This document shows positions 3,124-36,507 of a stretch of 38,560 nt of DNA, one piece after another. The stretch comes from a virus (taxonomy: Duplodnaviria > Heunggongvirae > Uroviricota > Caudoviricetes). The position numbers and the translations under genes were made by a program. The stretch covers positions 1-38,560 of IMG/VR virus record IMGVR_UViG_2529292890_000001; one strand, 5' to 3'. Every line of letters starts with the position of its first letter. The stretch's first letter is position 1. The notes below the pieces were generated by a model, which saw only the letters and a list, made by a program, of their open reading frames with translations, had not been told where the DNA came from and ran no database searches.

Positions 3124-3642
3124 GTGATGAAATTTAAAAAATGTCTTCTGCCTGTGGCAATGTTAGCGTCATTCACTCTGGCAGGATGCCAGTCAAATGC
3201 TGATGATCATGCCGCCGATGTTTATCAAACCGATCAACTGAATACCAAACAAGAAACTAAAACCGTTAATATTATTTCCATTCTTCCCGCAAAAGTTGCC
3301 GTAGACAACGCCCAAAATAAACGGAACGCACAAGCCTTCGGCGCGCTTATTGGCGCTGTCGCTGGCGGTGTTATCGGCCACAACGTCGGGTCTGGCAGCA
3401 ATTCCGGAACGACGGCAGGTGCAGTTGGCGGCGGAGCTGTAGGCGCGGCAGCGGGTTCGATGGTGAATGATAAAACCTTAGTGGAAGGTGTTTCTTTAAC
3501 ATATAAGGAAGGCACCAAAGTGTATACCTCCACCCAGGTGGGTAAAGAGTGCCAGTTTACGACAGGTTTAGCCGTTGTTATTACCACGACGTATAACGAA
3601 ACGCGTATTCAGCCAAATACCAAATGTCCTGAAAAGAGCTAA
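3124..3642 (+). CDS. yfgH: Outer-membrane lipoprotein YfgH (glycine-zipper)
   Basis: 172-aa ORF; signal peptide with lipobox LAGC; Gly/Ala-rich glycine-zipper segment. Confidence 0.8.
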   Translation: MMKFKKCLLPVAMLASFTLAGCQSNADDHAADVYQTDQLNTKQETKTVNIISILPAKVAVDNAQNKRNAQAFGALIGAVAGGVIGHNVGSGSNSGTTAGAVGGGAVGAAAGSMVNDKTLVEGVSLTYKEGTKVYTSTQVGKECQFTTGLAVVITTTYNETRIQPNTKCPEKS

Positions 3643-3657
3643 TAATCAGGAGGAGTC

Positions 3658-4197
3658 ATGAAGAAAGTTTTTCTTTGCGCCATCTTAGCCTCCTTAAGCT
3701 ATCCGGCTATCGCCTCATCATTGCAGGATCAACTCTCGGCTGTCGCAGAAGCGGAACAGCAAGGTAAAAATGAAGAGCAAAGGCAGCATGACGAATGGGT
3801 CGCGGAGCGCAACAGGGAAATCCAGCAAGAGAAGCAACGTCGCGCAAACGCCCAGGCCGCGGCTAATAAAAGAGCGGCAACGGCAGCAGCGAATAAGAAA
3901 GCTCGTCAGGATAAACTGGACGCCGAAGCCACTGCGGACAAAAAACGCGATCAAAGTTATGAAGATGAGCTACGTAGCTTAGAGATTCAGAAACAAAAAC
4001 TGGCGCTGGCGAAAGAAGAAGCCCGCGTCAAGCGCGAAAACGAATTTATCGATCAGGAACTGAAGCACAAAGCTGCGCAAACCGATGTGGTGCAATCTGA
4101 AGCTGACGCAAACAGAAATATGACTGAAGGCGGTCGCGATCTGATGAAAAGCGTGGGCAAAGCAGAAGAGAACAAATCGGACAGCTGGTTTAATTAA
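3658..4197 (+). CDS. yfgI: Uncharacterised secreted coiled-coil protein YfgI
   Basis: 179-aa ORF with signal peptide and charged K/E/R/A/Q-rich low-complexity body; RBS AGGAGG upstream; conserved position. Confidence 0.8.
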   Translation: MKKVFLCAILASLSYPAIASSLQDQLSAVAEAEQQGKNEEQRQHDEWVAERNREIQQEKQRRANAQAAANKRAATAAANKKARQDKLDAEATADKKRDQSYEDELRSLEIQKQKLALAKEEARVKRENEFIDQELKHKAAQTDVVQSEADANRNMTEGGRDLMKSVGKAEENKSDSWFN

Positions 4198-4235
4198 TCG
4201 ATGTAAGTAACTTCAAGCCTATAATTCTTGAAGAT

Positions 4236-4268
4236 AAAAAACCCTCTGTAGTAACAGAGGGTTTTGTT
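4236..4268. terminator. Bidirectional rho-independent terminator (yfgI / guaA 3' end)
   Basis: A5, stem ccctctgt, loop agta, stem acagaggg, then TTTTGTT; A-tract on one side and T-tract on the other. Confidence 0.7.
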
Positions 4269-4291
4269 CATTCATAGTGCAGGGATCAAAA

Positions 4292-4306
4292 TCATTCCCA
4301 CTCAAT
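4292..4306 (-). other. guaA: Putative guaA 3'-terminal fragment (…I-E-W-E-stop) marking the prophage attL junction
   Basis: Minus strand reads ATT GAG TGG GAA TGA with an in-frame stop directly upstream, so only the last codons of a GMP-synthase-like C terminus are present; phage-like sequence starts at about 4307. Confidence 0.5.
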
Positions 4307-4416
4307 TATTCACGGACACCATAACCAATTGAGTGATAACATTTTTCCAAAGATGAATTTTTCCCATACCGTTTTATATACCGTCACCGGAAATCAGTAC
4401 CATGAAAAATGCCATG

Positions 4417-4899
4417 CTATCTGGTCAGGGTGTCGTACTGTTTTTCGCAGACTCTTCCGGCTTCGGCTGCCCGGTCAGCATACTCTGCCAGTTGTCTGTT
4501 TCTCTCGAGAGATTTGCTGAGCACGTCGGCAAGCAAAACTCCGGTGTCTGCGGCTGACGACCCAGCGCCGACAATGGCGTTATAGTGCCTGAGCTGCTCA
4601 CGGATGGCAACGAGCTGTTGCTGCAACCGGCCAGCGCGAGCGGCAGCATCAAGAGCATCATTGCGCGCCTGGTCGATCCTCTGCTGCGATTCACGTTCAT
4701 TGATCGCTTTCTCCTGTTCGTAGTGCTGACGAACTCTCTCATCTTCAGTTTTGCGGTCTTCTTTCGCCTGAGCATACCCGGCGTCGTACTGACGACTGCC
4801 GTGCACATTCCAGGCAACAACTCCTGATGTGGCAAGAACAGCAAGCATCGCCACGATAATCAAATGTTTCCAGTATGCTTTTACGAATGCCCAGATCAT
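4417..4899 (-). CDS. i-spanin (Rz-like)
   Basis: 160 aa; N-terminal TM helix then charged coiled-coil; start overlaps the endolysin stop (ATGA); contains an embedded +1-frame lipoprotein ORF. Confidence 0.75.
4425..4700 (-). CDS. o-spanin (Rz1-like lipoprotein) embedded in the Rz frame
   Basis: Internal ATG at 4700 preceded by AGGAG; signal peptide with lipobox LALAG-C; Pro-containing mature part; alternative starts at 4661 or 4658. Confidence 0.55.
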   Translation of the reverse strand: MNVNRSRGSTRRAMMLLMLPLALAGCSNSSLPSVSSSGTITPLSALGRQPQTPEFCLPTCSANLSRETDNWQSMLTGQPKPEESAKNSTTP

Positions 4900-5525
4900 A
4901 CAGCCAGCACCTTACTGGCAATGATGTATCGGGCGCGGCGGTCATCAATGCCGTTCCGGCCACCATTGATAATCAGAGTTACACGTGCAATATCGCCGGT
5001 ATACTTCATGCAGCCTTTGCTGGAGAAGAACCAGGCCGCGCTACGGGCCGCGTATTCGTCCTGTGCCAGCAGTTCAGGATTCTCCAGCAGGTCAACTTTC
5101 AGACCGTTTCCGCAGTCACGATAGTTATTCAAGCCGGTAATCTGGATAAGTCCGCGCCCACGGTAGTTCCAGCCATCACCAGGGGCATTGTTCCCCATGC
5201 GTTTGCTGTACACCAGATTGGCGATAGCGCGCTGTCGCTCAAGTGGTAATGCTGCTTCACCAGCACGGCGACCCAGTGCATTAGCCTGCCCCTGGGTGAG
5301 ACGCCCAGCCCGAACGAAGTTAGCCAGTCCGGTGACACTGTAGTTGAAATTTTCCTGCAACCGGGTGAAGCCCCCAGACTCATGCCCGACCTGAGCAATA
5401 AACATTGCCTGATCTTCGGGTTTGCTGATTCCAAACTCTTTCATCGCAGAAGTTATATGCAAGAACCAGCGTTCGGCCAGCGCCTCGCTAATACCAGCAG
5501 CACGCTGGAATTGTTTAATCTCCAT
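4896..5525 (-). CDS. Endolysin, glycoside hydrolase family 19 (chitinase-like)
   Basis: 209 aa; motifs QVGHESGGF and [19 protein letters not shown] typical of GH19 phage endolysins. Confidence 0.8.
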
Positions 5526-6520: not shown

Positions 6521-9500
6521 TTAACGTTCTTCCAGAGACTGAATCCGCTCTTTTATCTTATCCATTTCTCTGCGCTGCCATGCTGCCTCGATATAGAATA
6601 AGAGATCAGGTCTGACCCCCCATCTAGATCCTGCTGGCGTTATTTCAACGCGCTCAATGATGTCTTCCATTACCATCACTGGATTATCATCCTCATCAAC
6701 AATGATGCTCCCGTCATTATCAGTCAGCTGTATTTCCCTTTGGCCAGTAATGACGTCATCATATACTGCGGGATAATCGTCATAGCAAAGAAAGGCATAG
6801 CGGCATGTTGTGCTTTCTTCTTCCATGAGTCCGTGAGAAATAAGAACATCACGAAGTTGCTGCGCGATTACACCATGATGTATCCTCGCCCCTTCTTCTC
6901 CCTTTATAGCGACAGCGTTCAGCCATTTATAAGCGATATACCTGACGTCACCCCAGGCATCCAGCAATGCTTCGTCAGGAGAGACCGGCTCTGTCTTTAA
7001 TGTTCCGTCACTGGTAACCACAGGATTGGAGCCAAGATAAACTGTCGAGAACCTGTTTCCCGGACCACCAAGAGCATTTACATTATCAAGATAAGGTTTA
7101 ACATCTCCGTTCTCAAAAAGATGTTCGAGTGCGTTATATACCGCGCGACGTGGAGTACTGCTTCCGGAACCATGCAACGTTATCATTGCACCATCTGCTG
7201 AAGACGTTGTTTCACCGCCGCTAACGATTAATCTCTGAGCGGTAACATCATCAGACGGTACTTTCTTCGCAATAATGGCGTAATTGCCCTCCAGTTTGAC
7301 TTCCGCGCGAACTTGTCCTGATGTACCTGCATGGACAGTCAGTGACTGGACGGCAACATCATCTGTGAAATCAACGGGTACAGGAACCGTCCTCACGCCG
7401 GACGTCGACATAAAAGTAGGAAGCGTTCTGTTAGGAGTGGCTCCGTAGACAAAATCCCTTGAAACAAATTCTTCCTGTTTAATTTTCACCCTGAAACAAT
7501 ACAAATCAGCCGGGTGACCATCGTGAACATAAGGATATTTTCTGTTGTTATCCCCTATGCTCCATGGGTTTAGAAAGTCTTCCCCACCGAAAATGTAGTA
7601 CAGCCAGTTGTCTTTGATACAAACTGAACCAACACCAACCGCAGAGTTAACTATTCCGCCCTGATAAATCTGATCAGTAACATTAACCCACTCTACATTA
7701 TCCAGACTCCACTCATTGACGTTAACTCTGGTCATAAATGTTCTTGGATAATTTCCTGCATAACGGTTATCAGGTTCTCCTCCTTCCCACTCACCAAATG
7801 CGCGCTCACTGCCAAAAATAATCAGCTCATCGCCAACTTTGGCAAAAGGAAGGTTTGAGTGATGAACATTATTTGGGAAGCGAAGAGAATTCCATGATGC
7901 ACCTAAATCAGAGCTTCTGTGCAATGAACTACCGGGTTGAGTACTTAATGTCCCCCTGGTCGTCAGATACAGAATGCCATCATAATATTTTACACATGGC
8001 TCAGATGCATTCGCCTCATATTCTGCAGGTATGCGTCTGCGAACAAAGCTACCAGGAGAACCGAAAGCATCAGAGAAATAGAGTATCCCAAGCTCGCGTG
8101 GACCAATATCACCATTATGGTAGCCAACAGCAAAACTGTTATCGCTAATCGTCGCAAAACTGTGAATCTCAGTAACAGGAGTGCTTCCGTCAACAAAAGA
8201 AGAAATAGTTCCAAGACTGGTTTTTCTCCATGGTGACGAGTGAAATGATGTACCAAAACTCCAGTATCTACCCTCGTTATTCTGATCCACATCCTGAGTA
8301 TTTTGCGTCGTAACTGTAAAAGTATTTTTATCAATAACAGTAGTCACCGTCATATTCCCGGTAACACCTGTAACACCAGAGTTTGAGAAGTTGACAAAAT
8401 CACCAGCAAATAATCCGTGATCAGTAATGCGAATATAAGCGACTTGCTGATTTGCTGCTTTCGTTATACCACCATAAACGCGAAGGCTGCGACTCATTGG
8501 ACGATCCCACAACTCTGCAACCTGCAGTTTATTTCCGCGCACGGTCCGCGTCTCAATTACAGCAAAAAGGCGATTTCTGACAACCCCCATACTCATGCAG
8601 TGATAGTTAACTGTGGGATAGTTTTCATGTAAATCTGTAAGCCATTCCGGCGTTGTCCAGGTCTTCCCGTCATCTCCTGAGCGAACCCATGCAACATGGA
8701 GGTTATTTACACCATGGCGGTCTCCAGCCATAAAAGGCGCATAGATGACATTGTCATATACAAACGTTTTATCCTGCGTCCAGGCGTTGTACCACGGTGT
8801 ATCTGTAATTTTAAATAACTCTCCCTGGATAAAATCTTCAGAAGCATAAAAAAGAGGCTGACCCGGTATTCTCTCAAATAAAAAACGAGCATTTTTAAAT
8901 CGGCTGACATCCGGAAGAGTTGATACTTTAAAAGTAAGCCCTAATCCGTCAATTTTATAACCTGGAGATGAGGCTTCAAGGCACGCGCTTATTGCAGTGG
9001 AATCGTCATTTATACCATCACCAACAGCTCCAAAATCTTTGGGGCTAATAGCATCACGCATTTTATCCTGGAACGTTCGGTATACTGCCCCAGAACCATA
9101 CTGAATAAACCAACCAAAACCACCAACAACCCCGGCGATTGCAGCATCGACATAATTACGCATTGAGCGATTATTTACAGCGTCCTGTTCAAGTGATGGA
9201 TCTGCAAGGTTAGAAATTCTGTTTTGCTTTGCATCGTAATATTTTGCAAGCAAAGATGGTTTCATCAATGCACGTCTGAACCATCCAAAACATTGCTGGA
9301 TCAGCATCGTCAGGTAGTCAAAGGCATCTTCATGCACTTCGGGGAAAAACTTTCCCTGATTGCGAAGGTCTGTCTCCTGCACTACATCAAGCACACGATC
9401 TATCGTAATTCTCCATCCAGTAGCAAGCGGCGACGGAAGAACCACAGAACCGCCACTATAAGTGCCCGCCCCAGTTACCGTATAACCGGTATCCAGAACC

Positions 9501-9640
9501 AATTCTGTTACGTTCCCGTTCAGGTCAGACACCTGAACAACCAGGTCGGATTTTCTGAAAATTCGAAAAGTATACGGAAACGATGTCGTAACGCCGTTAC
9601 CGGTGTATTCGTTGTGGTCAACTTCGGTTGAGACCGTCAT
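6521..9640 (-). CDS. Tailspike / receptor-binding depolymerase: N-terminal particle-binding domain, central beta-helix and BNR (Asp-box) region, C-terminal self-cleaving chaperone (peptidase S74-like)
   Basis: 1039 aa; DFGAVGDGINDDSTAI (pectate-lyase-like beta-helix start); Asp boxes SGDDGKTWT and SSDLGASW; C-terminal ...VVTS-DGTLK... followed by a helical LE-rich tail. Confidence 0.8.
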   Translation of the reverse strand: MTVSTEVDHNEYTGNGVTTSFPYTFRIFRKSDLVVQVSDLNGNVTELVLDTGYTVTGAGTYSGGSVVLPSPLATGWRITIDRVLDVVQETDLRNQGKFFPEVHEDAFDYLTMLIQQCFGWFRRALMKPSLLAKYYDAKQNRISNLADPSLEQDAVNNRSMRNYVDAAIAGVVGGFGWFIQYGSGAVYRTFQDKMRDAISPKDFGAVGDGINDDSTAISACLEASSPGYKIDGLGLTFKVSTLPDVSRFKNARFLFERIPGQPLFYASEDFIQGELFKITDTPWYNAWTQDKTFVYDNVIYAPFMAGDRHGVNNLHVAWVRSGDDGKTWTTPEWLTDLHENYPTVNYHCMSMGVVRNRLFAVIETRTVRGNKLQVAELWDRPMSRSLRVYGGITKAANQQVAYIRITDHGLFAGDFVNFSNSGVTGVTGNMTVTTVIDKNTFTVTTQNTQDVDQNNEGRYWSFGTSFHSSPWRKTSLGTISSFVDGSTPVTEIHSFATISDNSFAVGYHNGDIGPRELGILYFSDAFGSPGSFVRRRIPAEYEANASEPCVKYYDGILYLTTRGTLSTQPGSSLHRSSDLGASWNSLRFPNNVHHSNLPFAKVGDELIIFGSERAFGEWEGGEPDNRYAGNYPRTFMTRVNVNEWSLDNVEWVNVTDQIYQGGIVNSAVGVGSVCIKDNWLYYIFGGEDFLNPWSIGDNNRKYPYVHDGHPADLYCFRVKIKQEEFVSRDFVYGATPNRTLPTFMSTSGVRTVPVPVDFTDDVAVQSLTVHAGTSGQVRAEVKLEGNYAIIAKKVPSDDVTAQRLIVSGGETTSSADGAMITLHGSGSSTPRRAVYNALEHLFENGDVKPYLDNVNALGGPGNRFSTVYLGSNPVVTSDGTLKTEPVSPDEALLDAWGDVRYIAYKWLNAVAIKGEEGARIHHGVIAQQLRDVLISHGLMEEESTTCRYAFLCYDDYPAVYDDVITGQREIQLTDNDGSIIVDEDDNPVMVMEDIIERVEITPAGSRWGVRPDLLFYIEAAWQRREMDKIKERIQSLEER

Positions 9641-10116: not shown

Positions 10117-10845
10117 CTATCGTTTCGCTTTGTGCTCATCCCAGCACGTTTTGCACCATGCCATTAAGCCGTCCGCATTTTGATTATTAGGGTAAAAGCT
10201 GGTTCGTTTTCTGCGGACATTACAAATTGGGCACCACTTCATATGGCGTGTATTCTTTGGGCCATCGAGACACCTTGCACACCACTTAGTCAATCCATCT
10301 GGATTTTTTGACGATTTCCTGAATTTTTCATATGGAAGGTTTATTCTGCATCGCAAGCACTGCTTGCTACCACTTGAAACTCTGTTAGCTGATTCTTCTT
10401 TTGGCGGCGATACAGAAGGTATTCTTGCTGGCTCTGATACTGCCTGAGGTGCTTTTTTAGATGACTGAGACGATATGTCATCACCAGGGAATCTTCCATG
10501 ATATGCCGGACGCGTTGACACTCCAGGTGGAAGCTCAGCTGTAAACGGCTTTGGCTGAATCAGTTGCCTCTCTTTTGCTAACTCCTGCTGTTTATAATAT
10601 GTCTGGATTACCGCACTATCATAAGCAGGAGGTGCGGAAATATTAGGCGCATTACCTCCAGTTTTTTGAAACTGAGTAGAGGTGTGTTCTATCACCTGTG
10701 TACGATTAATCGTTATCTCCCCATCTTCGGTCTTTATCGTTTTGTTATGATTAACGACCGTACGATCAGAGATCTTAGTCTTGTTCTGGTTGATAACGTA
10801 AATAATCACCGCAACCACACCAACAACTATCCAGAAAACTTCCAT
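10117..10845 (-). CDS. Membrane-anchored protein with C-terminal tandem CxxC zinc-ribbon repeats; function unknown
   Basis: 242 aa; N-terminal TM helix, S/T/P/Q-rich linker, C terminus with CLRC...WCARC...WCPIC...WCKTC; RBS GAGG; two palindromic motif copies upstream. Confidence 0.6.
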   Translation of the reverse strand: MEVFWIVVGVVAVIIYVINQNKTKISDRTVVNHNKTIKTEDGEITINRTQVIEHTSTQFQKTGGNAPNISAPPAYDSAVIQTYYKQQELAKERQLIQPKPFTAELPPGVSTRPAYHGRFPGDDISSQSSKKAPQAVSEPARIPSVSPPKEESANRVSSGSKQCLRCRINLPYEKFRKSSKNPDGLTKWCARCLDGPKNTRHMKWCPICNVRRKRTSFYPNNQNADGLMAWCKTCWDEHKAKR

Positions 10846-12044: not shown

Positions 12045-12233
12045 ATGGAAATCAACATCATTACATTGCTGAAGGCCATTATTGGCGGAGCGGGCTTAGG
12101 CTTTGCCCTACCAGGCGGATTATCTTTCCTGCTTCCTGCTTTTACTGTTACAGCTGGGATAGCCTATGCATTTGCTGTGGCTGGTGCTGTTGCACTCCCT
12201 GCTATCTATGCCGCAAAGAAGTTAGCCAACTAA
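12045..12233 (+). CDS. Small hydrophobic Gly/Ala-rich membrane protein (62 aa)
   Basis: Two predicted TM segments with GxxxG/AxxxA packing motifs; RBS GAGGGGG; palindromic motif 26 bp upstream. Confidence 0.5.
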   Translation: MEINIITLLKAIIGGAGLGFALPGGLSFLLPAFTVTAGIAYAFAVAGAVALPAIYAAKKLAN

Positions 12234-12234
12234 A

Positions 12235-12567
12235 ATGCCTGATTTATCTTGGCTTGCGCCCAGAGATGCACAGCAATTGACAAGGTTTTATTTCATACTG
12301 TGCATTGCTTATCTTGCTGTTCATCTGATATGGGATGCCGTTTGCAAAGATACGCCTCCTTTTTCTTTGGATAAGTTGCAATACAAGATGAATGAGGTTT
12401 ATTCATCATCTACTTTTGCAACCAGCGCATTCTTCATTGTTATTCTGTTCGATATGAAGAATCCACTGAGAACTTCAGATGCTTTCATATTCCCATTAAT
12501 TATTGCTGCTCTAACTGGCTTTATGATCTCATTATCAGCAATAGTGCCAAAGAAAGTAAATAACTGA
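12235..12567 (+). CDS. Membrane protein (110 aa, 3 predicted TM helices), translationally coupled to the preceding gene
   Basis: Start 1 nt after the upstream stop; hydrophobic helices; followed by an intrinsic terminator. Confidence 0.5.
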   Translation: MPDLSWLAPRDAQQLTRFYFILCIAYLAVHLIWDAVCKDTPPFSLDKLQYKMNEVYSSSTFATSAFFIVILFDMKNPLRTSDAFIFPLIIAALTGFMISLSAIVPKKVNN

Positions 12568-12570
12568 ATA

Positions 12571-12592
12571 AGCCCGCGTTGCGGGCTTTTTT
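12571..12592 (+). terminator. Rho-independent terminator
   Basis: agcccgc-gtt-gcgggct followed by TTTTTT. Confidence 0.7.
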
Positions 12593-12664
12593 ATGGACGA
12601 AACAAAAGTCAGTGCTACACTCATTGACGCCACATCGAGGTGGCTTATAGATGGAAATGTCACA

Positions 12665-12826
12665 ATGAAAAAAGCATTTGCTGCACTGTTCGTTTTGTTG
12701 TCTCTGGTAGCTTCAACTCAGGCCTTTGCCGGTCGTTGTCAGCACGACAGCGACACTGCTGCTGACGGCTCCCGCTGCGGTGGGCGTTCTGCGGATTCCC
12801 GCCCGGGTGGCGGTGGCATTCGTTAA
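12665..12826 (+). CDS. Small secreted or periplasmic Cys-containing peptide (signal peptide plus ~31-aa mature part)
   Basis: Internal ATG at 12665 gives MKKAFAALFVLLSLVASTQAFA followed by GRCQHDSDTAADGSRCGGRSADSRPGGGGIR; the longer track ORF begins inside the upstream terminator. Confidence 0.4.
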   Translation: MKKAFAALFVLLSLVASTQAFAGRCQHDSDTAADGSRCGGRSADSRPGGGGIR

Positions 12827-12848
12827 AAACAAGGCCGCGAAAGCGGCC
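12823..12848 (-). terminator. Rho-independent terminator ending the minus-strand ejection-protein/lipoprotein operon
   Basis: Minus strand: ggccgc-uuuc-gcggcc followed by UUGUUUUU. Confidence 0.6.
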
Positions 12849-12857
12849 TGTGACATG

Positions 12858-13238
12858 TCACGCAACGCAATTATTACCGCGCCATGTAACATTTTTAATA
12901 ATCTTATCAGCACCAAACTCAACGTAAACAGAGCAACTGAAATGGAGTGTATAACCGCCATCAGTTGTTGCGTATGTGTTTGAATATATAGTATTACCAA
13001 TTAGATTAGACGTAGTATTATACGTTGTGGTTTGTGGTACGTTATAACTACCAGAGCTTGAGTAAACATACACTCTGTTTCCATCTGGAGATGTAAGCTC
13101 TCCCTGAGGATACCCCCACTGCTGAACCATTGCGTCTATACTCTGCCCGCGCCACGTAAGCATATTTCTTTCAAACTGTGCAGCTGACTGGCATCCAACG
13201 AGAAGCATAAATCCAAAAATCAAAAATACTTTTCTCAT
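12858..13238 (-). CDS. Prophage lipoprotein (126 aa), possible superinfection-exclusion or envelope factor
   Basis: Start at internal ATG 13238 (RBS AGGGG) gives MRKVFLIFGFMLLVGC lipobox; mature part has a BamE/OmlA-like pattern (…QQWGYPQGELTSPDGNRVYVY…) and is S/T/N/Y rich. Confidence 0.5.
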   Translation of the reverse strand: MRKVFLIFGFMLLVGCQSAAQFERNMLTWRGQSIDAMVQQWGYPQGELTSPDGNRVYVYSSSGSYNVPQTTTYNTTSNLIGNTIYSNTYATTDGGYTLHFSCSVYVEFGADKIIKNVTWRGNNCVA

Positions 13239-13285
13239 AATTACCCCTATCATGGAAAAACAGCACCAATCCACAAATTAACTAG

Positions 13286-13474
13286 TTATTTTATTATTCT
13301 TCCGAACAATACAATTCCGAATACTACAAAGCCGAACCATGCCGCTGCACGCAACAGAGATTCCAATTGAAACCCATTTTTATCAAAATGTATGAATAGC
13401 ATAAAAACGCTGCACATATTAGTACAATAAAAGTTATTTGAACCATCATATCTCCTTTTATTGCGGAGTGACAT
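13286..13474 (-). CDS. Possible small membrane protein (62 aa)
   Basis: ORF with hydrophobic C-terminal segment overlapping the end of the upstream virion gene; weak support. Confidence 0.25.
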   Translation of the reverse strand: MSLRNKRRYDGSNNFYCTNMCSVFMLFIHFDKNGFQLESLLRAAAWFGFVVFGIVLFGRIIK

Positions 13475-15932
13475 CCTGTGGTCGCCACCAGTATGTCTGG
13501 TTAAACTCTTTCTTCGAACGTTGCTCCATTTTACGCAAATAGCCTGGTGAAAAATACTCCTGCATCTGGTTAAAGATCATGTGATCGAGAGCCGCCTTCA
13601 AGTACCAGAGATTCGCACCAGGCATCAAACCTTTCCCCAGCTTCACCAGATCACCACCAGTCTGCTCACTCTTCCCTTCCACAGCATTTAACGGTATGCC
13701 CTGAGCAATCTTCACTACGTCATCAACCAGACCAGCTACCGGGCCAAGCATCGACGCCAGCGCGCCGCTTCCGTACCTAGTGTGATCTGACAATAAAAAG
13801 TCACCGTAAAGGCCAAGACCACCACCTTTCAGTAGAGCACCAAGCCAGAATTTTGCGGCATCTTCTCCTGTCATCTCTCGAGGATTACGACCAGACGCAA
13901 GGTCGTTAAGTTGCTGCGACAAAGCGCCAAGAATGGTCGTACTGGCAATAAACGTCGCAATATATGCCGCACGCCCACCAGCAGACGGCATACCCATAGC
14001 GCGTGACCAGTGACGCATAACAACCGAGATAGGGAACGATTTAAACAGGAAAACACTTCTCGTTAATTCACCTTTCCATGTTCCACGCTGAATACCAGAA
14101 CCGGTTATCAGTTGCTCACGTGCTCCCGGTGTAATAACAGCCATATCAACTTCTTCAGTTACGGCACCGAGCAGTTTACGCATTGCCTCAAATTTCACGC
14201 GTTCAGGCTCACCAAGATGTTTAACTGCTGAATCAGGGATACGCATAATGCTTTCCGGTGTCAGCATCGTATTATTACCGTTCCCCCAGTCCTCCTGTTT
14301 CGCCAGCTTCCATACGCTCCAGTCTGTGTCAGTAATCCCTTTGCTTTTCAGGATACGAAAATCAGAGTCATCGAGGCTACGAAGGTCTGGTGTCCGTGAC
14401 ACTACTTCTCCCAGGCTTCCCATCATGGTTACGCCATAGGCGCGCTTGTGCGCATCTGACCATGCTGTAAGCCCACTGGCACGCATTACCGCCGTTGCCG
14501 CCCAACGAGACACTGACGGCCCCATATTATCCATCGCCCAGCGGTTAACGCTGCCAAGTAGAGATTCCATCGCCAGACCAGCGCGGCGCGCCCGCGCAAG
14601 TTCTGTACGGTTCGTTGGGTCCATAGCTTCAAGCTGGTTGCGGAATAACTGGTTCATTGGAAGGTTGGTAACCTTCGCAGACAGATACATGGTTCCAAGA
14701 TCAGAGAACGATGACAGCAACGCGGATCCGAGTCTGCTGGCAACCAGCCAGTTGCGGATATTGTCAGACCATCGCGCGATGTGCGGATTCGCTACAGGCT
14801 GTGTCTTTCCGGAAATAAAGTTGTACAGATTCTCTGTGTTGTTCGCCAGCCGCTCGACTTTACCGGTTTTACTCGGGTTAGCTGTTGCCGTTTCTGCCTT
14901 CACCTGATCAAGAAGAGAGCGGAAAACATGATCGGGGTTTGGGCCATATGTTTCCACCAGTGCAATATCTTTACTGATACCTTCCAGGTGACCGACCATG
15001 ATTTCCCATAGAGAGCGATCGCCATAAAGTTGCTGATATTGCAGATAGGAATCTGCATCTTTGAAATGTATCTGTCGTGATGCATTACCACGGTTAGCAC
15101 GTGCGCCGGAAATTCGCATTCCGGTATCAGTAAGCTTATTCAGCCCACCAGTAGCGATCGTGTTATAAGCCTCTCCAAGAAATGAAGACAACTCGGCATC
15201 GTTCATCAGTTGTCCATCGGCTCGGATATAATATTTGCGATCCAGCCTACCTATAACATCGCTAACCCACTTATCCTTTGATACTGCCCCAACCTTTTCC
15301 ATAGAATGATGTTGAGGGATCCCCCAGTTTTCGAGATAGCCAATGTCCCCACCAGCATCATTAAACCGGCGGCGCAGCAGCTCTGTAACTTCTCTCCACG
15401 CCTTAGCACCGTTTCTTGCTTTAGCATTGCCAGTAGTTTGCCCCCGCATTTCATATACCAGGTCACGTACGCCCGCTTCATCTTCAAACAGACCAAAAAA
15501 GCGAGGATCAACTGCTTCGAATGCCTCCTGCAATTGACTCAATGCATAATCACGGGTGGCTTTTGTTCTGGATTCAACAGAGAGGAAATTAGATTTACCG
15601 TCTGCATTAAAAGCTATAGTACGGTTAAGAGCGCCAAGTTTCCCATCAGCCCCTTGATAGCTATTGATAAATTTATCCAATCTCTGACGCGCGGCTATAG
15701 TGAGAGCCACACGACGTTTCTTTAATGCCGCTTCTCGCTGTAATTCTTCAGATGCCAATTGTGCTGCTCGATATAGCCGCTCTGATTCGGAAAGTTGTCG
15801 CCACGACATAGGGTCATCACGAGCAATGGAGCGCATATTTCGATAAATGCGGTCTTCAATGTTCTGTATTTCTCGCGCCGTTAACATGCGCTGCGCCGCC
15901 TGCTGAACCGCTTGTATACATTCCTGTCTCAT
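13458..15932 (-). CDS. Large internal virion / DNA-ejection protein
   Basis: 824 aa; last of a run of large genes after the tail genes, where podoviruses encode ejection/core proteins; RBS GAGAGG. Confidence 0.5.
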   Translation of the reverse strand: MRQECIQAVQQAAQRMLTAREIQNIEDRIYRNMRSIARDDPMSWRQLSESERLYRAAQLASEELQREAALKKRRVALTIAARQRLDKFINSYQGADGKLGALNRTIAFNADGKSNFLSVESRTKATRDYALSQLQEAFEAVDPRFFGLFEDEAGVRDLVYEMRGQTTGNAKARNGAKAWREVTELLRRRFNDAGGDIGYLENWGIPQHHSMEKVGAVSKDKWVSDVIGRLDRKYYIRADGQLMNDAELSSFLGEAYNTIATGGLNKLTDTGMRISGARANRGNASRQIHFKDADSYLQYQQLYGDRSLWEIMVGHLEGISKDIALVETYGPNPDHVFRSLLDQVKAETATANPSKTGKVERLANNTENLYNFISGKTQPVANPHIARWSDNIRNWLVASRLGSALLSSFSDLGTMYLSAKVTNLPMNQLFRNQLEAMDPTNRTELARARRAGLAMESLLGSVNRWAMDNMGPSVSRWAATAVMRASGLTAWSDAHKRAYGVTMMGSLGEVVSRTPDLRSLDDSDFRILKSKGITDTDWSVWKLAKQEDWGNGNNTMLTPESIMRIPDSAVKHLGEPERVKFEAMRKLLGAVTEEVDMAVITPGAREQLITGSGIQRGTWKGELTRSVFLFKSFPISVVMRHWSRAMGMPSAGGRAAYIATFIASTTILGALSQQLNDLASGRNPREMTGEDAAKFWLGALLKGGGLGLYGDFLLSDHTRYGSGALASMLGPVAGLVDDVVKIAQGIPLNAVEGKSEQTGGDLVKLGKGLMPGANLWYLKAALDHMIFNQMQEYFSPGYLRKMEQRSKKEFNQTYWWRPQDVTPQ

Positions 15933-15937
15933 TTAAT

Positions 15938-17740
15938 TTAACCTCTCAAGAAACACGCCACAGCGACATCAAACAGGCTGGAATCCTGTATTGCCTGCTC
16001 ACTTTCCCTGTTCGCTTCATCCAGTGCTTCACGCGCACTGCGCGATTGTGGATTACCATCATCATCCAGCACGGTGATTATCATGTCAGGTGATTCAAGC
16101 AGCGAGTCTTCAGCTATGCGCAAATCAATATCTCCTGCCTGATCTGACATCATTTTTTGTTCTGCCTGTTGCAATATTTTATCAGGCTCAAAAGGAGCTA
16201 CTTCGTCTGGCGTCCTGACCTCTGCTGTTTTATAGAATGAAACAGCCTGAGCATTAAGTTCACTTTCTGCCTGCTGTCTCCGAGCCAGTTCTGCTCGAGC
16301 TTCAAAAAACTGACCGCCAGGCTCATGCGGTGCCAACGCGTTACGAGAAAATTCCAGGCGTTCTTGTGCCTGCCGGATTCGTTGGTCAATATCGCGAAGT
16401 CTGGCCTGTTTATCTGATCGAGCACGAGATAAAGCCTTACCGCTACCGGCTGGATCTTCTGCAAGAATTTGTGCGCGCTGTTCAGTGAGATTTTCAATAA
16501 TTCGTTGGCTATTAGCGATTTCAGACTGGTAAACCTGTCTATCGCCACGCGGCAAAAGCTGCGCGGCCTGTTCTTCAAGCAACCGATTTTCTATAGCGCG
16601 CGCCGTTACTCCATCATCTACAGATGACAGAGCCTCATTAACTGCCTGAGACAGCAGACTCTTGCGTCCAGGAATTTCACTGAAAGATGCAGACTCAACA
16701 ATGCTGGCAACGTCTACAGGTCTCCCCTGGCTAACATCAGACATGGCTTTTCGCAGAGCCTGAATGTGCGAATTACGCGAAAGCACGTTGATCGGCACGC
16801 CGGGAGCAATATCAATTTCAGCATGATGAGCGGCATTCGCCGCCAGTGCAGCATCGATATCAACTGGTGAAAAATTTGGTGCGCTTGTAGACTCGCCGCG
16901 AGAGTTAATAAATCTGCCGACACCACCAAACGCCACCCCAAGAACAGCATCAATAGCAATTGCCTGTCGATCCAACACATCATACTGGTTAGCCATTTCG
17001 CTATAGCCACCATCACGAAGCGTTTTTGCAGTAAGCCCACGCTGTGCCATACCGAACGCAATATTTGTACCTGCGGCATAGGCAATATCTGGCGTTGCAC
17101 GTACTGCTGTTGCTGCGGCGCGTCGCACTGAACTTTCACCCGTCCGCGCAAGCTGAGCCGCCACACCTTCCGCCAGCGCACCACCAGCACGTAACCCGAG
17201 GCTCATAGGGATCAGTGTTCCGGCACCAGCAGTAATACCCTGCACTAATCCCGCTTCCTGCGCCGTCCTGAAATCAACACCCTGTGCTGTAAGCCGTTCA
17301 AACTCAGAAAAACCCTGTAGAGAAGTTACCGCCGCAGCACCTCCGACCGGACCACCGAGCGTTGTACCGACAACAGCCTGCCCGCCCATATCGAACAACC
17401 CATAAAGGACCTGCCCGGCGGTTCCGGTTGTCGCGGCATCAGGCGTCAGCCGCTTAACCTGCTGCTCTGCTAGTTTTCTCTGCTCAGCAATGTATGAAAC
17501 TGAAGTGTCATTGATCGAGGTGTTTTCGTTAACAAACTGAGCAATCGGGGATACGATTTTATCCATCCCTGCCCATAGCAACTGATCTGGCTTTGCCACC
17601 AGCCCGGAGTACAAACCAGACAATGCCGCTCCTACAGCATTGTCGAAAAAACCAACATCGCTGTTAAAGCCAGCTGGATTTGATGCTGCTTCGTCAAGCT
17701 GCTGATTCTGGTTTACTGGATTAAGGCCAAAGTAACTCAT
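15938..17740 (-). CDS. Internal virion / ejection protein (Gly/Ala-rich)
   Basis: 600 aa; low-complexity G/A-rich segments; start overlaps the upstream stop. Confidence 0.5.
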   Translation of the reverse strand: MSYFGLNPVNQNQQLDEAASNPAGFNSDVGFFDNAVGAALSGLYSGLVAKPDQLLWAGMDKIVSPIAQFVNENTSINDTSVSYIAEQRKLAEQQVKRLTPDAATTGTAGQVLYGLFDMGGQAVVGTTLGGPVGGAAAVTSLQGFSEFERLTAQGVDFRTAQEAGLVQGITAGAGTLIPMSLGLRAGGALAEGVAAQLARTGESSVRRAAATAVRATPDIAYAAGTNIAFGMAQRGLTAKTLRDGGYSEMANQYDVLDRQAIAIDAVLGVAFGGVGRFINSRGESTSAPNFSPVDIDAALAANAAHHAEIDIAPGVPINVLSRNSHIQALRKAMSDVSQGRPVDVASIVESASFSEIPGRKSLLSQAVNEALSSVDDGVTARAIENRLLEEQAAQLLPRGDRQVYQSEIANSQRIIENLTEQRAQILAEDPAGSGKALSRARSDKQARLRDIDQRIRQAQERLEFSRNALAPHEPGGQFFEARAELARRQQAESELNAQAVSFYKTAEVRTPDEVAPFEPDKILQQAEQKMMSDQAGDIDLRIAEDSLLESPDMIITVLDDDGNPQSRSAREALDEANRESEQAIQDSSLFDVAVACFLRG

Positions 17741-20250
17741 TGCGGAATATCTCCGGAGAATCTCTGACGCTTCTGTGTCAGATTAAGAACAACGGGAGAA
17801 CCATCATCTTTCAGCAGATAACCAGTACCAAGTTTAACCAGGTACTGACTATCGCCGTAACTTTGCAAACCATACTGACCAGGCGGTGTTTTTATCCCGG
17901 AGCCGACAACTTGTTCATTCCAAGCCTGATTAACCTGCTTATCGAATTGCTCTGCAGACATTCCCCACGGCAAAAGGACATTCCCCATTCCGTTATAGTC
18001 ATGCACGCCACCTGTAGCTACGTTAACAGCCTGTTTCCAGACATCATTGTCAATTTCGCCTGATACCACGCCTTTTTTCGCCATCACACCAGCGTAATAA
18101 TCCTTTGCGATCTCGTATGCCATTGATGCGCCCTGAGCGTCACCAGCAAATGCATCCTTCACCATGTCAGAAAACTCAAGGCGAAGATCAGCATCTTTAG
18201 GCATCGGAATACCTTTCGCATCATCAGTACCTTTACGAGCCGCCGCGCCAGCAAGAATTGTCTGCGCAGCGGTTTCAGGAGACACGGAAACATCCGGATT
18301 AAACCAGTTTTTTTCTGCCAAAATACCACCAGGCTTATCCATCAGTATCCCGGCAACGGCAGCAGATGGAGCGTTGGCACTGATCTGCTGTAGTGCTGAC
18401 ATATACACCTGCCCACCACCAGTGCTCTGCCTGATGGTATCGAGATATGCTGCCTGTTGGGAAACTGGAGCATCACGAAAGAAAACACCGATCTGATTGG
18501 CCTCGTCTTTGGAAAAGAACGTCAGTGGAGTGCCATATGACTTAGCAAGGTCACTGACCTGAGCGGCACGCAAGGCAACGCTCTGTCCAAAGTTATCCTT
18601 ATTGCTCATGTCGATAGGCTTTGCCTGTCCGGAGGCAAGAGAGAACTGCACAGGATCCGACTGCCGCTGCTTTATCACCTGATTTGCAGCCGAAACAACG
18701 TTGTCATAAAGAGCTGCGCGTGCCGCATACCCCTCCCCTGTTTCACCAGTATCCGGGCGTAATTGCTCAACATATGCTGTAATGCTGCTTGTCGGCATGT
18801 TGCGGAAAGAGCCGATATACTGTCCGGCGATCTGCGTATTCTTAAACTCGGTATATCGCAGGTTTCCTTCTCTGACTCCATAAGCTGCAATAAAATCATC
18901 CTCACCAGGTGGGTTAGGAAATTCAACGCCACGCATATACGCAGCCGTCGCATCGCGAACCCGGCTGTCGAGCATCGTTTTATATTCAGCCTGCTGTTGT
19001 CTGGCTAGTGCATCAGTCTGTCGCAACACGCTGGCCTGATCTGATTCACTTAAAGCATCGAACCAGGCTACACCGGTATAACGTTTATTTTTTGTCGGTA
19101 GCTGAGAAAGCCCCAGCGCAGCACTAACACCTGCAGTTAACTGCTGATCACTGTATGGCTGGCTACCGTTTTCATGATGGATAATGGCTGCACAAAGCGC
19201 CTTCAGGGTATCAGGATTTGATGCATCGAGAGGCTCATCAGCAGAAACGCCAAGTTGTTCGCACACTGCTTTGATATACGACATAGTGTCATTTTTATCA
19301 GTAGGCGGTGCCCAGCGATTAATTATCTCGCTGACGGTATCAATACCCTGCCGCTGATACGACATCAGGTTCCGCCCTAATGCACGAATACCGTGTTCAG
19401 GGGTTTCGAATTTGGCAAAGCGACCATCATCACCAGTCTGCCCAACCCACGGATTAGTTTTGCTGTATTCAAGATTGCCGGGGTTATTGTTGCGTATACC
19501 GCGGGTACGATCGGAAGAGCCACTATCTGCTACAGCACGGCGAGATCCAGCAGCAGTATCGCTTAACTCGCCGTTTTGCTGTCTTACCTGAAGATAGTTT
19601 GCTCCAATAGCATTTTGAGCAGTTGCTTTTGCTGTTGCTTCTTTAAACTCGATTTTCTTGGCCTGGATTTGCTCGTCACTCCAGCCATGTGCAATGCCGT
19701 AATCCTCAATTTGCTGGAAAGTTTGCTTATTAGCCAATACGTATGCGACGTTGTCGCCATACAATGCTGCGGCATTTTTACCATTGTTCAGCAGCGTAGC
19801 CTGAAACTGGCCTTCTTCGTAGGCATTTATTTGCCCTATCTCGTGCCGCCCTGCCTGCGTAGTGAACTGAATGCGCTGCTGCTGCGCCTGCTGCATGAAA
19901 GCATTACGAGCCTGTTCATCCGGCAGCGACATAGCCAGTTGTTCGACCTGAGCATCAAACTGCTGCGTATACTCCTGACCTTTTCCAATAGCATTTTTCC
20001 CTTTCAGGTTAAGCAATCCTGTTTCAGGATTATTCAGCAGATCACTGCTTATCTGACTGAGGTTAAGAGATGCCTCCTGAGCCAGAGCGATATTGGCACG
20101 CTGTTTTGCCTGACCAAAAACATCAATTGCCTCTGTCCCTGCCCGAACAAAAGCATCACCAATACCTGGCTGAGAAAACGTCTGCAAGCCTGCTGACTGA
20201 ACTCCACGGCTCTGAACCTGACGGCCGGATACTGTTGGTACGACTGGCAT
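17737..20250 (-). CDS. Large internal virion protein with a possible cell-wall-hydrolase-like segment
   Basis: 837 aa from the ATG at 20250 (RBS GGAGG; track ORF starts at 20325); internal segment GIRNNNPGNL...RWAPP...; domain assignment is tentative. Confidence 0.45.
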   Translation of the reverse strand: MPVVPTVSGRQVQSRGVQSAGLQTFSQPGIGDAFVRAGTEAIDVFGQAKQRANIALAQEASLNLSQISSDLLNNPETGLLNLKGKNAIGKGQEYTQQFDAQVEQLAMSLPDEQARNAFMQQAQQQRIQFTTQAGRHEIGQINAYEEGQFQATLLNNGKNAAALYGDNVAYVLANKQTFQQIEDYGIAHGWSDEQIQAKKIEFKEATAKATAQNAIGANYLQVRQQNGELSDTAAGSRRAVADSGSSDRTRGIRNNNPGNLEYSKTNPWVGQTGDDGRFAKFETPEHGIRALGRNLMSYQRQGIDTVSEIINRWAPPTDKNDTMSYIKAVCEQLGVSADEPLDASNPDTLKALCAAIIHHENGSQPYSDQQLTAGVSAALGLSQLPTKNKRYTGVAWFDALSESDQASVLRQTDALARQQQAEYKTMLDSRVRDATAAYMRGVEFPNPPGEDDFIAAYGVREGNLRYTEFKNTQIAGQYIGSFRNMPTSSITAYVEQLRPDTGETGEGYAARAALYDNVVSAANQVIKQRQSDPVQFSLASGQAKPIDMSNKDNFGQSVALRAAQVSDLAKSYGTPLTFFSKDEANQIGVFFRDAPVSQQAAYLDTIRQSTGGGQVYMSALQQISANAPSAAVAGILMDKPGGILAEKNWFNPDVSVSPETAAQTILAGAAARKGTDDAKGIPMPKDADLRLEFSDMVKDAFAGDAQGASMAYEIAKDYYAGVMAKKGVVSGEIDNDVWKQAVNVATGGVHDYNGMGNVLLPWGMSAEQFDKQVNQAWNEQVVGSGIKTPPGQYGLQSYGDSQYLVKLGTGYLLKDDGSPVVLNLTQKRQRFSGDIPQ

Positions 20251-30513: not shown

Positions 30514-30533
30514 CACCGTGACATGTCACAAAC

Positions 30534-32746: not shown

Positions 32747-32980
32747 TCAAAGTCCATCAAATTCATCGTAAAAACTCTCGTCAAGATACCCTTCCCATTT
32801 ACCGCGAATGAAAATTACATCCTCGCCGCAAGGGTGCTGACTGTCGATAACTATATCCCTCCTGGCGCAACCATACTTATGCATGAGAAATTTAACCTCT
32901 TTCGGAAAATTTGCTGAGTTATCTCTCATATCTTCAAGGTCGTAGCGTATTTTTGGCATAACACCTTCGTGACATGTCAC
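32747..32980 (-). CDS. Hypothetical protein
   Basis: 77-aa ORF upstream of terS; no recognisable motif. Confidence 0.35.
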   Translation of the reverse strand: MTCHEGVMPKIRYDLEDMRDNSANFPKEVKFLMHKYGCARRDIVIDSQHPCGEDVIFIRGKWEGYLDESFYDEFDGL

Positions 32981-36140: not shown

Positions 36141-36488
36141 TCAGAACTCTTCGATGTTCCAGCCACCACCTGCTTTCTTTGGCTTAACCGTTACCCCGAT
36201 GATTCGGAACGGATACTGATCTGCGGCGACTTTGGTTTTCACTCTGGCGTCATCGGTCCAGAATCCCCCTTTCACTTCGTGCAGTTCCATCTCGCCGGTG
36301 GCGAGCATCACAGCAAAATCTGGCGTATAGAACGTGTTGTCAGCTAACCGCAGCTTGATACCCTCAAATCGATACCAGACGATTTCTCCTGCACGTTTAC
36401 GCAGCTCAAGGTGCTGGCAATACGCAGATTCTGTTTTGTTCATCTGGCCTGTTTTGAGTCGACCAAGAGCCTGCATCTGTTTTCTCAT
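36141..36488 (-). CDS. DUF1064-family phage protein (putative nuclease fold)
   Basis: 115 aa; pattern …LELRKRAGEIVWYRFEGIKLRL…YTPDFAV…KTKVAADQYPF… resembles DUF1064; first gene after the replication block. Confidence 0.5.
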   Translation of the reverse strand: MRKQMQALGRLKTGQMNKTESAYCQHLELRKRAGEIVWYRFEGIKLRLADNTFYTPDFAVMLATGEMELHEVKGGFWTDDARVKTKVAADQYPFRIIGVTVKPKKAGGGWNIEEF

Positions 36489-36490
36489 GA

Positions 36491-36507
36491 TTTACCCCTT
36501 AGGTAAT
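36491..36507 (-). promoter_or_regulatory. Dispersed palindrome copy D: TTTACC-CCTTA-GGTAAT
   Basis: Abuts the DUF1064 start codon; followed by ACCACATAAG (36512-36521). Confidence 0.5.

Follow-up and report, generated by a model that had tools for sequence, protein, structure and literature searches.

Background

To our knowledge, the way in which podophage ejection proteins cross the outer membrane and the periplasm, and the way in which this crossing can be blocked by cells or by resident phages, are poorly understood, and SieA, at the inner membrane, is the only well-studied case. The subject here is a small lipoprotein gene (positions 12858-13238, minus strand) in a stretch of 38,560 nucleotides, IMG/VR virus record IMGVR_UViG_2529292890_000001, positions 1 to 38,560, called the window below. 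The gene lies directly beyond the ejection-protein genes of a prophage, and its product is tentatively read as a superinfection-exclusion factor.

Several phage envelope proteins with such a function have been described. In P22-like phages the sieA gene is located in the interval between gene 16 and gene 9 and is present in 22 of 66 phages, and its product, an envelope protein, acts on the ejection proteins and blocks DNA delivery via the conduit that they form (PMC10883804). The exclusion lipoproteins Llp and Rtp45 are encoded in structural gene clusters and bind the outer-membrane receptors FhuA and LptDE, respectively, from the periplasm (PMC12685063). Both block productive adsorption to infected cells and to debris (PMC12685063, PMC9586334, PMC11893012). 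The mEpimmI Lpp proteins, also encoded by lipoprotein genes inside structural clusters, exclude mEpimmI phages (PMC11893012).

The gene order in the window (gp17-like ejection protein, lipoprotein, Bro-N antirepressor, tailspike) is that of the sieA interval in P22. As with sieA, the gene is found between the last ejection-protein gene and the tailspike gene, it adjoins the antirepressor region, and its presence is sporadic. SieA is a polytopic inner-membrane protein expressed in lysogens from its own promoter, PsieA, whereas the lipoprotein lacks transmembrane helices, has a predicted outer-membrane location, shows no sequence similarity to SieA and has no evident promoter of its own. It resembles T5 Llp, Rtp45, Cor and mEpimmI Lpp in being a small phage lipoprotein, predicted to reside in the outer membrane, encoded within or beside structural or receptor-binding genes. 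The described exclusion lipoproteins have about 6-8 kDa and belong to siphophages that recognise protein receptors, in contrast to the present protein of 12 kDa, with a predicted BLIP/BamE-like fold, from podophages with a glycan primary receptor. Lambda Bor and TraT are likewise outer-membrane lipoproteins on a prophage or plasmid, but Bor is expressed from the prophage by its own promoter and the gene studied here is instead wired into the late operon.

An earlier reading of the window, made from the sequence without database searches (the sequence-only reading), had suggested a Cor- or Bor-like role. This is not established, as the libraries searched turned up neither a sequence nor a fold resembling Cor, Llp, Rtp45 or Bor and the Lambda_Bor (PF06291) and TraT models gave no match at E<=10. 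In the tests run, the protein fell outside the BamE/SmpA_OmlA, Bor, Cor/Llp/Rtp45 and SieA families.

The gene and the predicted lipoprotein

The open reading frame (ORF) has 126 codons, starts with ATG and has a product that begins MRKVFLIFGFMLLVGC. The identical ORF with the identical start is found in RefSeq (PGAP annotation, WP_157905739.1) and in the GenBank record of phage ZX5 (QTH80062.1), in both cases labelled 'hypothetical protein'. The lipobox claimed by the sequence-only reading for this ORF and start is borne out by the signal ending in LVGC16 and by a lipobox cysteine in 22 of 22 aligned homologues; the regular expression matched 21 of them, the remaining one (P0032) having TAGC instead. 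The n-region is charged by Arg2 and Lys3, the hydrophobic core has 11 residues and the lipoprotein-signal pattern [LVI][ASTVI][GAS]C is present. Lipidation and processing of the 126-residue protein by signal peptidase II are predicted from this canonical signal.

In Enterobacteriaceae, an Asp at position +2 after the lipidated cysteine retains a lipoprotein in the inner membrane, and lipoproteins with other residues are sorted to the outer membrane by the Lol system. The +2 residue is Gln here and Gln or Ala in every homologue checked, and since there is no Asp, the mature protein is predicted to be anchored in the inner leaflet of the outer membrane in a Lol-dependent manner. Beyond the signal peptide no transmembrane segment was found, and the protein is modelled as a soluble alpha/beta domain.

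Invariant positions in close homologues are Cys16, W29, G31, GYP 42-44, GN 53-54, VY 56-57, Y59, P68, G95, Cys102 and GNNC 121-124. Across the whole family Cys16, C102 and C124 are invariant or nearly so, as are the motifs WxG, WGYP, GNxVYVY, GG and GNxC. From the two invariant cysteines of the mature domain we infer a periplasmic C102-C124 disulfide. The ratio of nonsynonymous to synonymous substitution rates (dN/dS) is 0.05-0.14 against homologues of 59-79% identity; the comparison was run for positive selection, and with synonymous divergence saturated it speaks for purifying selection alone. The gene is a real, selected coding sequence because the lipobox is conserved and dN/dS is about 0.1, and with the confident structure model described below its product is read as a folded protein.

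Linkage to the ejection-protein genes

A word-indexed search gave 37 close relatives, and all those with a named source are from Enterobacteriaceae. The close relatives always adjoin large ejection-protein genes of epsilon15-like phages. In Escherichia, Salmonella (one variant in 593 contigs), Klebsiella (including a prophage on plasmid pKPN-498), Raoultella, Morganella and two enterobacterial metagenome contigs (L011 and L012), the homologue is the gene immediately downstream of the last large ejection-protein gene, at a distance of 0-9 bp or with a 4-bp overlap with a gene for a two-helix membrane protein of 99-109 residues, and ends ahead of a terminator. Two GC-rich IMG/VR phage contigs have the gene flanked by those for the gp16-like and gp17-like proteins, all in one orientation, and Burkholderia phage vB_E332 carries it in the same slot but inverted.

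The degree of conservation differs from that of the adjacent gene. Compared with the window, the lipoprotein is 79% identical in Klebsiella, 60% in Raoultella and 48% in L011, where the gp17-like proteins are only 28%, 28% and 27% identical; in Morganella it is 53% identical and the gp17-like protein gives a marginal local match (26% over 231 residues, E 2e-6). The reverse is seen in Salmonella, with 68% identity for the lipoprotein and 93% for the gp17-like protein. The two sets of identities are thus decoupled, and the lipoprotein gene is exchanged independently of its neighbours. The tailspikes that accompany it also vary (endosialidase, P22-type and GDSL-lipase type). Because the gene is independent of tailspike type, it can be argued that its target is not the glycan receptor. 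A K1-capsule-specific function was rejected since homologues accompany unrelated tailspikes.

In the window the gene occupies a slot between the gp17 homologue and a palindrome with a terminator, on the same strand. This slot always holds envelope proteins. Phages that lack the lipoprotein have small membrane proteins there (epsilon15 gp18, phiV10 p21, phiv142-3 Orf12), and the 99-109-residue two-helix proteins are further occupants.

Relatives with 36% identity form the main cargo of ColE1-type plasmids of 3.1-6.4 kb, and the lipoprotein is able to persist alone on plasmids. These copies (L005, p64EVA-1, 385-777; L006, 3465-3800; hits H27-H30) are unannotated in two records and are closest to copies embedded in the ejection operons of GC-rich phages, the WGPPQQ subtype. 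The small ColE1/Rop-type plasmids of E. coli and Klebsiella are non-mobilizable, with the family member as essentially the sole cargo. A plasmid of Vibrio breoganii (L082) has a homologue of 37% identity (5001-5384) directly downstream of a gene for an Imm_superinfect (T4 Imm-like) plus SHOCT protein (4067-4879).

Plasmid pKPN-498 of K. pneumoniae is a 244-kb conjugative IncF plasmid, on which positions 169514-181891 (L007) hold a complete epsilon15-like module with ejection proteins, lipoprotein, Bro-N, tailspike and lysis cassette. The gene order of this module is identical to that of Klebsiella phage ST11-OXA245phi3.2.

Family and distribution

The protein matches PHROG 3716, a phage protein family, over its full length (E 5e-64, residues 11-126 against profile positions 1-116 of 116). 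No family model for the 126-residue protein was found in Pfam, NCBIfam or PADLOC, and a Pfam scan of 66 diverse members also gave none. An exhaustive profile search returned 3705 clusters at 50% identity with E<=1e-3, and 1089 with E<=1e-10. Nearly all cluster members are lipoproteins of 105-150 residues, and a few are fused to SHOCT, MORN or SH3 domains; one representative with a SHOCT fusion is P0040. They are named 'lipoprotein' or 'hypothetical', or carry the automatic JGI labels 'BamE' and 'lipoprotein-sorting protein'. Genome scans placed distant members in Glaciecola, Planctomycetota, Nitrospirota, Campylobacterota, gut Alphaproteobacteria and others, some in mobile or prophage settings and some in conserved chromosomal neighbourhoods. 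This is a large uncurated family of bacterial lipoproteins of which one branch has been recruited by mobile elements.

Predicted fold

AlphaFold2, run with a 22-sequence alignment, gave a model with a mean predicted local distance difference test (pLDDT) score of 84, and above 86 for residues 21-120. The mature domain of 111 residues is predicted to have two helices packed on an extended antiparallel sheet, similar to BLIP and BamE, with a conserved cysteine-containing strand at the C-terminus. The sequence-only reading had described a tail rich in S, T, N and Y; the rich part is instead central, residues 60-100 (63% S/T/N/Y), and is modelled as ordered beta-hairpins with pLDDT 86-88.

Structure comparison gave values of 7.5 for YjgB/DUF4309, 7.5 for the putative BLIP 3d4e, 6.7 for BamE, 6.6 for OsmE, 6.6 for the type VI secretion system (T6SS) immunity lipoprotein BtiO, 5.4 for YfeY, 5.3 for the AtaA-binding domain of TpgA, 5.3 for BLP and 5.0 for BLIP. 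Foldseek ranked E. coli BamE at the top, but with an E-value of just 0.2-1. A BFVD structure search gave one uncharacterised viral match and weak matches to SmpA/OmlA phage lipoproteins, and the only match in a sequence-profile search of the PDB was marginal (4h0a, E 0.017).

The BamE/OmlA-like pattern reported by the sequence-only reading thus may hold for the kind of fold predicted, alpha-alpha-beta-beta-beta in the BamE family, but does not hold for the sequence. The SmpA_OmlA model (PF04355) did not match the protein at E<=10 or any of 66 family members at E<=1, and hhalign of the family profile against a hand-entered E. coli BamE sequence gave a probability of 4.9% with the lipobox alone aligned. 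No sequence relationship to BamE/SmpA_OmlA, OsmE or the N-domain of TpgA was found. The lipoprotein differs from BamE/SmpA_OmlA in its larger sheet, in the conserved Cys102/Cys124 pair and in being encoded by mobile elements. The BLIP-like domains (CAP_assoc_N 4ifa/4h0a, DUF4309 YjgB and 3d4e) belong to secreted proteins of Gram-positive bacteria or are parts of larger proteins, and all matches to them were under the curated thresholds.

Expression signals and the boundary of the slot

The ORF map and the synteny with the annotated genomes of phiV10 and epsilon15 confirm that the lipoprotein gene is the last in the minus-strand late virion operon, as the sequence-only reading had it. Because it is co-oriented with, and terminal to, the operon of three ejection proteins, the lipoprotein is probably produced at least late in lytic growth. 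The intrinsic terminator that had been placed at 12823-12848 is confirmed as a 7-bp hairpin with a T-run at 12825-12849 (Table 1). It is common to the late operon and to the convergent plus-strand genes, and an annotated terminator is found at the equivalent place in phiV10 and epsilon15.

The similarity between the initiation regions of the lipoprotein gene and of the DUF1064 gene at 36488, also pointed out earlier, is exact. The arrangement of AGGGGTAA, 2-3 nucleotides and ATGAGAAAA has exactly two occurrences in the window (13230-13248 and 36480-36499, minus strand), where none is expected by chance, and the second occurrence is the start of the DUF1064 gene. The arrangement was not found upstream of lipoprotein homologues in other phages, whose upstream sequences therefore lend no support to a regulatory link between the two initiation regions. 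No functional meaning is given to the shared sequence because the pattern was picked post hoc and the homologues differ.

The stop codon of the lipoprotein gene is contained in a perfect 12-bp palindrome, GTGACATGTCAC. Three exact copies are found in the window (12850-12861, 30518-30529 and 32969-32980; 0.11 expected), and epsilon15 (L083) has three exact copies at equivalent places (2142-2153, 19517-19528 and 39612-39623). Each copy marks the 3' end of a transcription unit: one follows the large terminase gene, one closes the late operon and one precedes the small terminase region. Two of the three copies in epsilon15 are just ahead of an annotated rho-independent terminator, and a G+C-rich hairpin lies beside two of those in the window, the late-operon and the post-terminase copy. 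The stop codon of the last gene is either part of the palindrome or directly beside it. The palindrome is kept whichever gene occupies the slot, so that it forms a conserved right-hand boundary of this variable slot in Uetakeviruses. It could serve as a binding site for a regulator or mark a boundary of mosaic recombination.

The prophage and the neighbouring genes

The temperate coliphage vB_EcoP_ZX5 and Phi05_1387 B match the region at 99.7-99.8% identity, and there is synteny with phiV10 and epsilon15 of the genus Uetakevirus. An endosialidase tailspike, and with it a temperate Uetakevirus specific for the K1 (polysialic acid) capsule, has already been reported for ZX5 (PMC9782041). The window carries an integrated K1-specific epsilon15-like (Uetakevirus) prophage of E. 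coli, integrated because host genes, which are yfgF/H/I-like, occupy its left end. The junction is between about 4200 and 4416, adjoining an Rz-type gene. A Morganella locus (L010) has the same three host neighbours and therefore shares the integration site.

Upstream of the lipoprotein gene on the same strand are homologues of the epsilon15 internal virion (ejection) proteins gp13-gp17; the annotation note of epsilon15 gp15 cites a lytic transglycosylase. Downstream are convergent genes for small membrane or secreted proteins, the Bro-N antirepressor gene and then the tailspike gene. The three convergent products are a 62-residue hydrophobic protein (PHROG 13406), a 110-residue multi-helix membrane protein (PHROG 36716) and a secreted Gly/Arg/Asp-rich peptide of 53-77 residues with a signal peptide (MKKAFAALFVLLSLVASTQAFA; PHROG 3117/14503 'membrane associated protein'). 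With positions 12600-13500 as query, the convergent segment (query 1-263) has 97-99% identity to phiv142-3, HEMP4, TL-2011b and EC.W1-9, and the matches of phiV10 are limited to the terminator and the gp17-like end. Between the tailspike and the antirepressor is a gene for a 242-residue protein whose architecture is unusual for the location: it combines an N-terminal transmembrane helix and a Pro/Ser-rich linker with two Cys-rich repeats at the C-terminus that resemble zinc fingers.

A putative ORF of 41 codons (MMVQITFIVLICAAFLCYSYILIKMGFNWNLCCVQRHGSAL) is present between the gp17-like gene and the lipoprotein gene, where the small membrane proteins epsilon15 gp18 and phiV10 p21 are found. 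No PHROG or Pfam match was found for this stretch when the overlapping frame at 13286-13474 was scanned, and the ORF itself had no PADLOC match. It is uncertain whether it is a real gene, the alternative being an overlapping ORF of 62 codons at 13286-13474. Its product may work together with the lipoprotein.

Table 1. Features in and around the lipoprotein locus, with positions in the window
Feature	Position	Strand	Remarks
Host MASE1-EAL phosphodiesterase	27-2270	-	Left end of window
Host Gly-zipper/TraT-like lipoprotein	3124-3642	+	Left end of window
Host DUF5384 protein	3658-4197	+	Left end of window
Endosialidase tailspike	6521-9640	-	End_N_terminal, beta-propeller, beta-barrel, tail-spike and Peptidase_S74 chaperone; epsilon15-type N-terminal adaptor
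242-residue protein between tailspike and antirepressor	10117-10845	-	PHROG 6762; weak endonuclease VII, Lar-like and Stc1 matches
Three small genes converging on the lipoprotein terminator	12045-12826	+	PHROG matches
Intrinsic terminator	12825-12849	-	AGGCCGC-TTTC-GCGGCCT + TGTTTTT; stem 12849-12832, 7 bp, 6 G-C, loop TTTC
Perfect 12-bp palindrome GTGACATGTCAC	12850-12861	.	Contains lipoprotein stop codon
Lipoprotein gene	12858-13238	-	Precursor 126 residues; mature protein 111 residues, 12.3 kDa, pI 5.6
Predicted lipidated Cys16	13191-13193	-	End of lipobox LVGC; from sequence
Predicted signal peptide, residues 1-15	13194-13238	-	MRK + VFLIFGFMLLV + G; from sequence, lipobox conservation and weak LPAM_1 matches
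Shine-Dalgarno-like AGGGGTAA	13241-13248	-	AGGGG 5 nt upstream of ATG
Putative 41-codon ORF	13324-13449	-	One hydrophobic helix; strong AAGGAGA Shine-Dalgarno directly after gp17-like stop; unannotated
gp17-like large internal virion (ejection) protein	13458-15932	-	Immediately upstream; PHROG 684 (virion structural protein); phiV10 p20, epsilon15 gp17
gp16-like internal virion protein	15938-17740	-	PHROG 1145; phiV10 p19, epsilon15 gp16
gp15-like internal virion protein	17737-20250	-	Transglycosylase-like region; PHROG 992, 1044 and 7182 'tail injection transglycosylase'; phage homologue epsilon15 gp15

Discussion

The new observations are that the lipoprotein gene keeps its linkage to the ejection genes and that the unannotated family is so large. 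The explanation that we favour, although only tentatively, is that the protein is a periplasm-facing superinfection-exclusion factor, anchored in the outer membrane and acting at the outer-membrane or periplasmic step of genome delivery. It is favoured because the gene is linked to ejection genes across divergent phages, its position parallels that of sieA, relatives are plasmid cargo and one relative has an Imm_superinfect neighbour. The lipoprotein would act from the periplasmic face of the outer membrane, and its docking partner would be either a conserved component of the host envelope that serves in DNA delivery, such as a secondary outer-membrane receptor or a channel partner, or the outer-membrane or periplasmic part of the ejection-protein conduit of an incoming phage. 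Adsorption of related podophages would still take place, yet their DNA delivery would fail. Infected cells would be protected, and the progeny would be spared wasteful ejection into debris. The protein would be a functional counterpart of P22 SieA at the outer membrane that works like T5 Llp, Rtp45 or Cor and is homologous to none of them.

The lipoprotein is well conserved compared with the very divergent ejection proteins, which suggests that its partner is a conserved host component rather than a fast-evolving phage protein; a conserved part of the conduit is the alternative. Among the structural relatives there are proteins that dock on the periplasmic faces of outer-membrane barrels (BamE on BAM and TpgA on AtaA), and others are immunity or inhibitor proteins (BtiO and BLIP). 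A broader proposal, which we regard as rather doubtful, is that the more than 1000 clusters at 50% identity represent a widespread and so far unrecognised class of anti-phage lipoproteins of mobile elements. Located in the inner leaflet of the outer membrane, they would block podophage genome delivery by intercepting the ejection conduit or by locking a conserved outer-membrane machine, for example BamA.

Several observations weigh against superinfection exclusion as the function. No sequence or fold similarity to any proven exclusion protein was found, nor any PADLOC model, and the outer-membrane location and the disulfide are themselves predictions. A consensus scan and a reading by eye of positions 13239-13323 gave no convincing sigma-70 promoter directly upstream of the gene, so expression by the prophage of a lysogen, which classical exclusion needs, is unsupported. 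The gene is dispensable, as epsilon15, phiV10 and most relatives in E. coli do without it: the terminator and boundary sequence are shared by 521 of 5426 complete E. coli genomes, and 33 of these 521 carry the lipoprotein gene. The Vibrio case is a single instance, with no further Imm_superinfect neighbour among 82 loci. Many distant members are chromosomal in free-living bacteria, and the ancestral role of the fold is therefore probably a housekeeping function in the envelope. A literature search and the genome paper of ZX5 yielded no mention of the protein and no experiment on any member of the family.

The structural relatives also allow other functions. The BLIP-like domain could make the protein a periplasmic inhibitor or immunity protein that neutralises an enzyme acting in the periplasm, such as the transglycosylase of the gp15-like ejection protein (of incoming or own virions), a T6SS toxin or a bacteriocin. 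This overlaps with exclusion, but the target would be an enzyme and not a receptor or conduit. It is unlikely, given that no cognate toxin gene adjoins the plasmid or phage copies, that the identity of the lipoprotein does not track that of the ejection proteins and that the fold matches are generic. The resemblance to BamE could mean mimicry, with the protein modulating outer-membrane biogenesis by binding BamA, BamD, LptD or another machine late in infection, which could ease lysis and release or remodel the surface. We consider such mimicry quite improbable; it would merge with exclusion if BamA is the secondary receptor.

It is likewise unlikely that the gene is a lysogenic-conversion factor of the lambda Bor/TraT type, adding to host fitness through serum resistance, stress tolerance or adhesion and having no role in phage-phage conflict. 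Such a factor would fit with the finding of the gene on prophages, one of them on a large Klebsiella plasmid, and on small plasmids from clinical isolates, with the stress-regulon lipoproteins OsmE and YfeY among the structural relatives and with the accessory-rich (moron) region between tailspike and virion genes that the gene adjoins. However, translation or transcription of most copies is coupled to that of late structural genes, without a promoter of their own, and this tight coupling in most relatives argues against a prophage-expressed gene of the Bor type. Furthermore, two copies are embedded inside the ejection operon, the Lambda_Bor and TraT models do not match, and the gene is kept in phage ZX5, which was isolated as free virions. 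A decaying or functionless ORF hitch-hiking in a recombination hot spot might be expected to be as sporadic as this gene is in the Uetakevirus prophages of E. coli, and to be annotated 'hypothetical' in every database. The low dN/dS with saturated synonymous divergence, the lipobox and two cysteines invariant over hundreds of clusters, the confident structure prediction and the position kept across phages with neighbours less than 30% identical make this extremely improbable, and the selection and conservation data effectively refute it.

Two further candidates were rejected. Homology to a virion structural component, which the sequence-only reading had named as evidence that would speak against it, was not found, and an exported lipoprotein is incompatible with cytoplasmic assembly of the virion. 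An o-spanin was dismissed on the grounds that the lysis cassette already has an Rz/Rz1-type pair and that the predicted fold of the lipoprotein is globular.

If the gene turns out to be an ordinary accessory gene of the envelope, the value of these observations is limited to improved annotation. As this large family lacks a model in Pfam, NCBIfam and PADLOC, an established function would annotate thousands of genes. An exclusion function could explain the resistance of lysogens to therapeutic podophages, and K1- and Klebsiella-specific phages are candidates for therapy. The lipoprotein is small and easy to clone, and its genetic linkage to the ejection genes extends over phages that infect E. 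coli K1, Salmonella, Klebsiella and Morganella, so that it would offer access to the outer-membrane side of DNA delivery. Should the family prove to be an anti-phage class, the linkage to ejection genes, from phages of Enterobacteriaceae to Burkholderia-type phages, would represent an old system for self/non-self discrimination in the ejectosome module.

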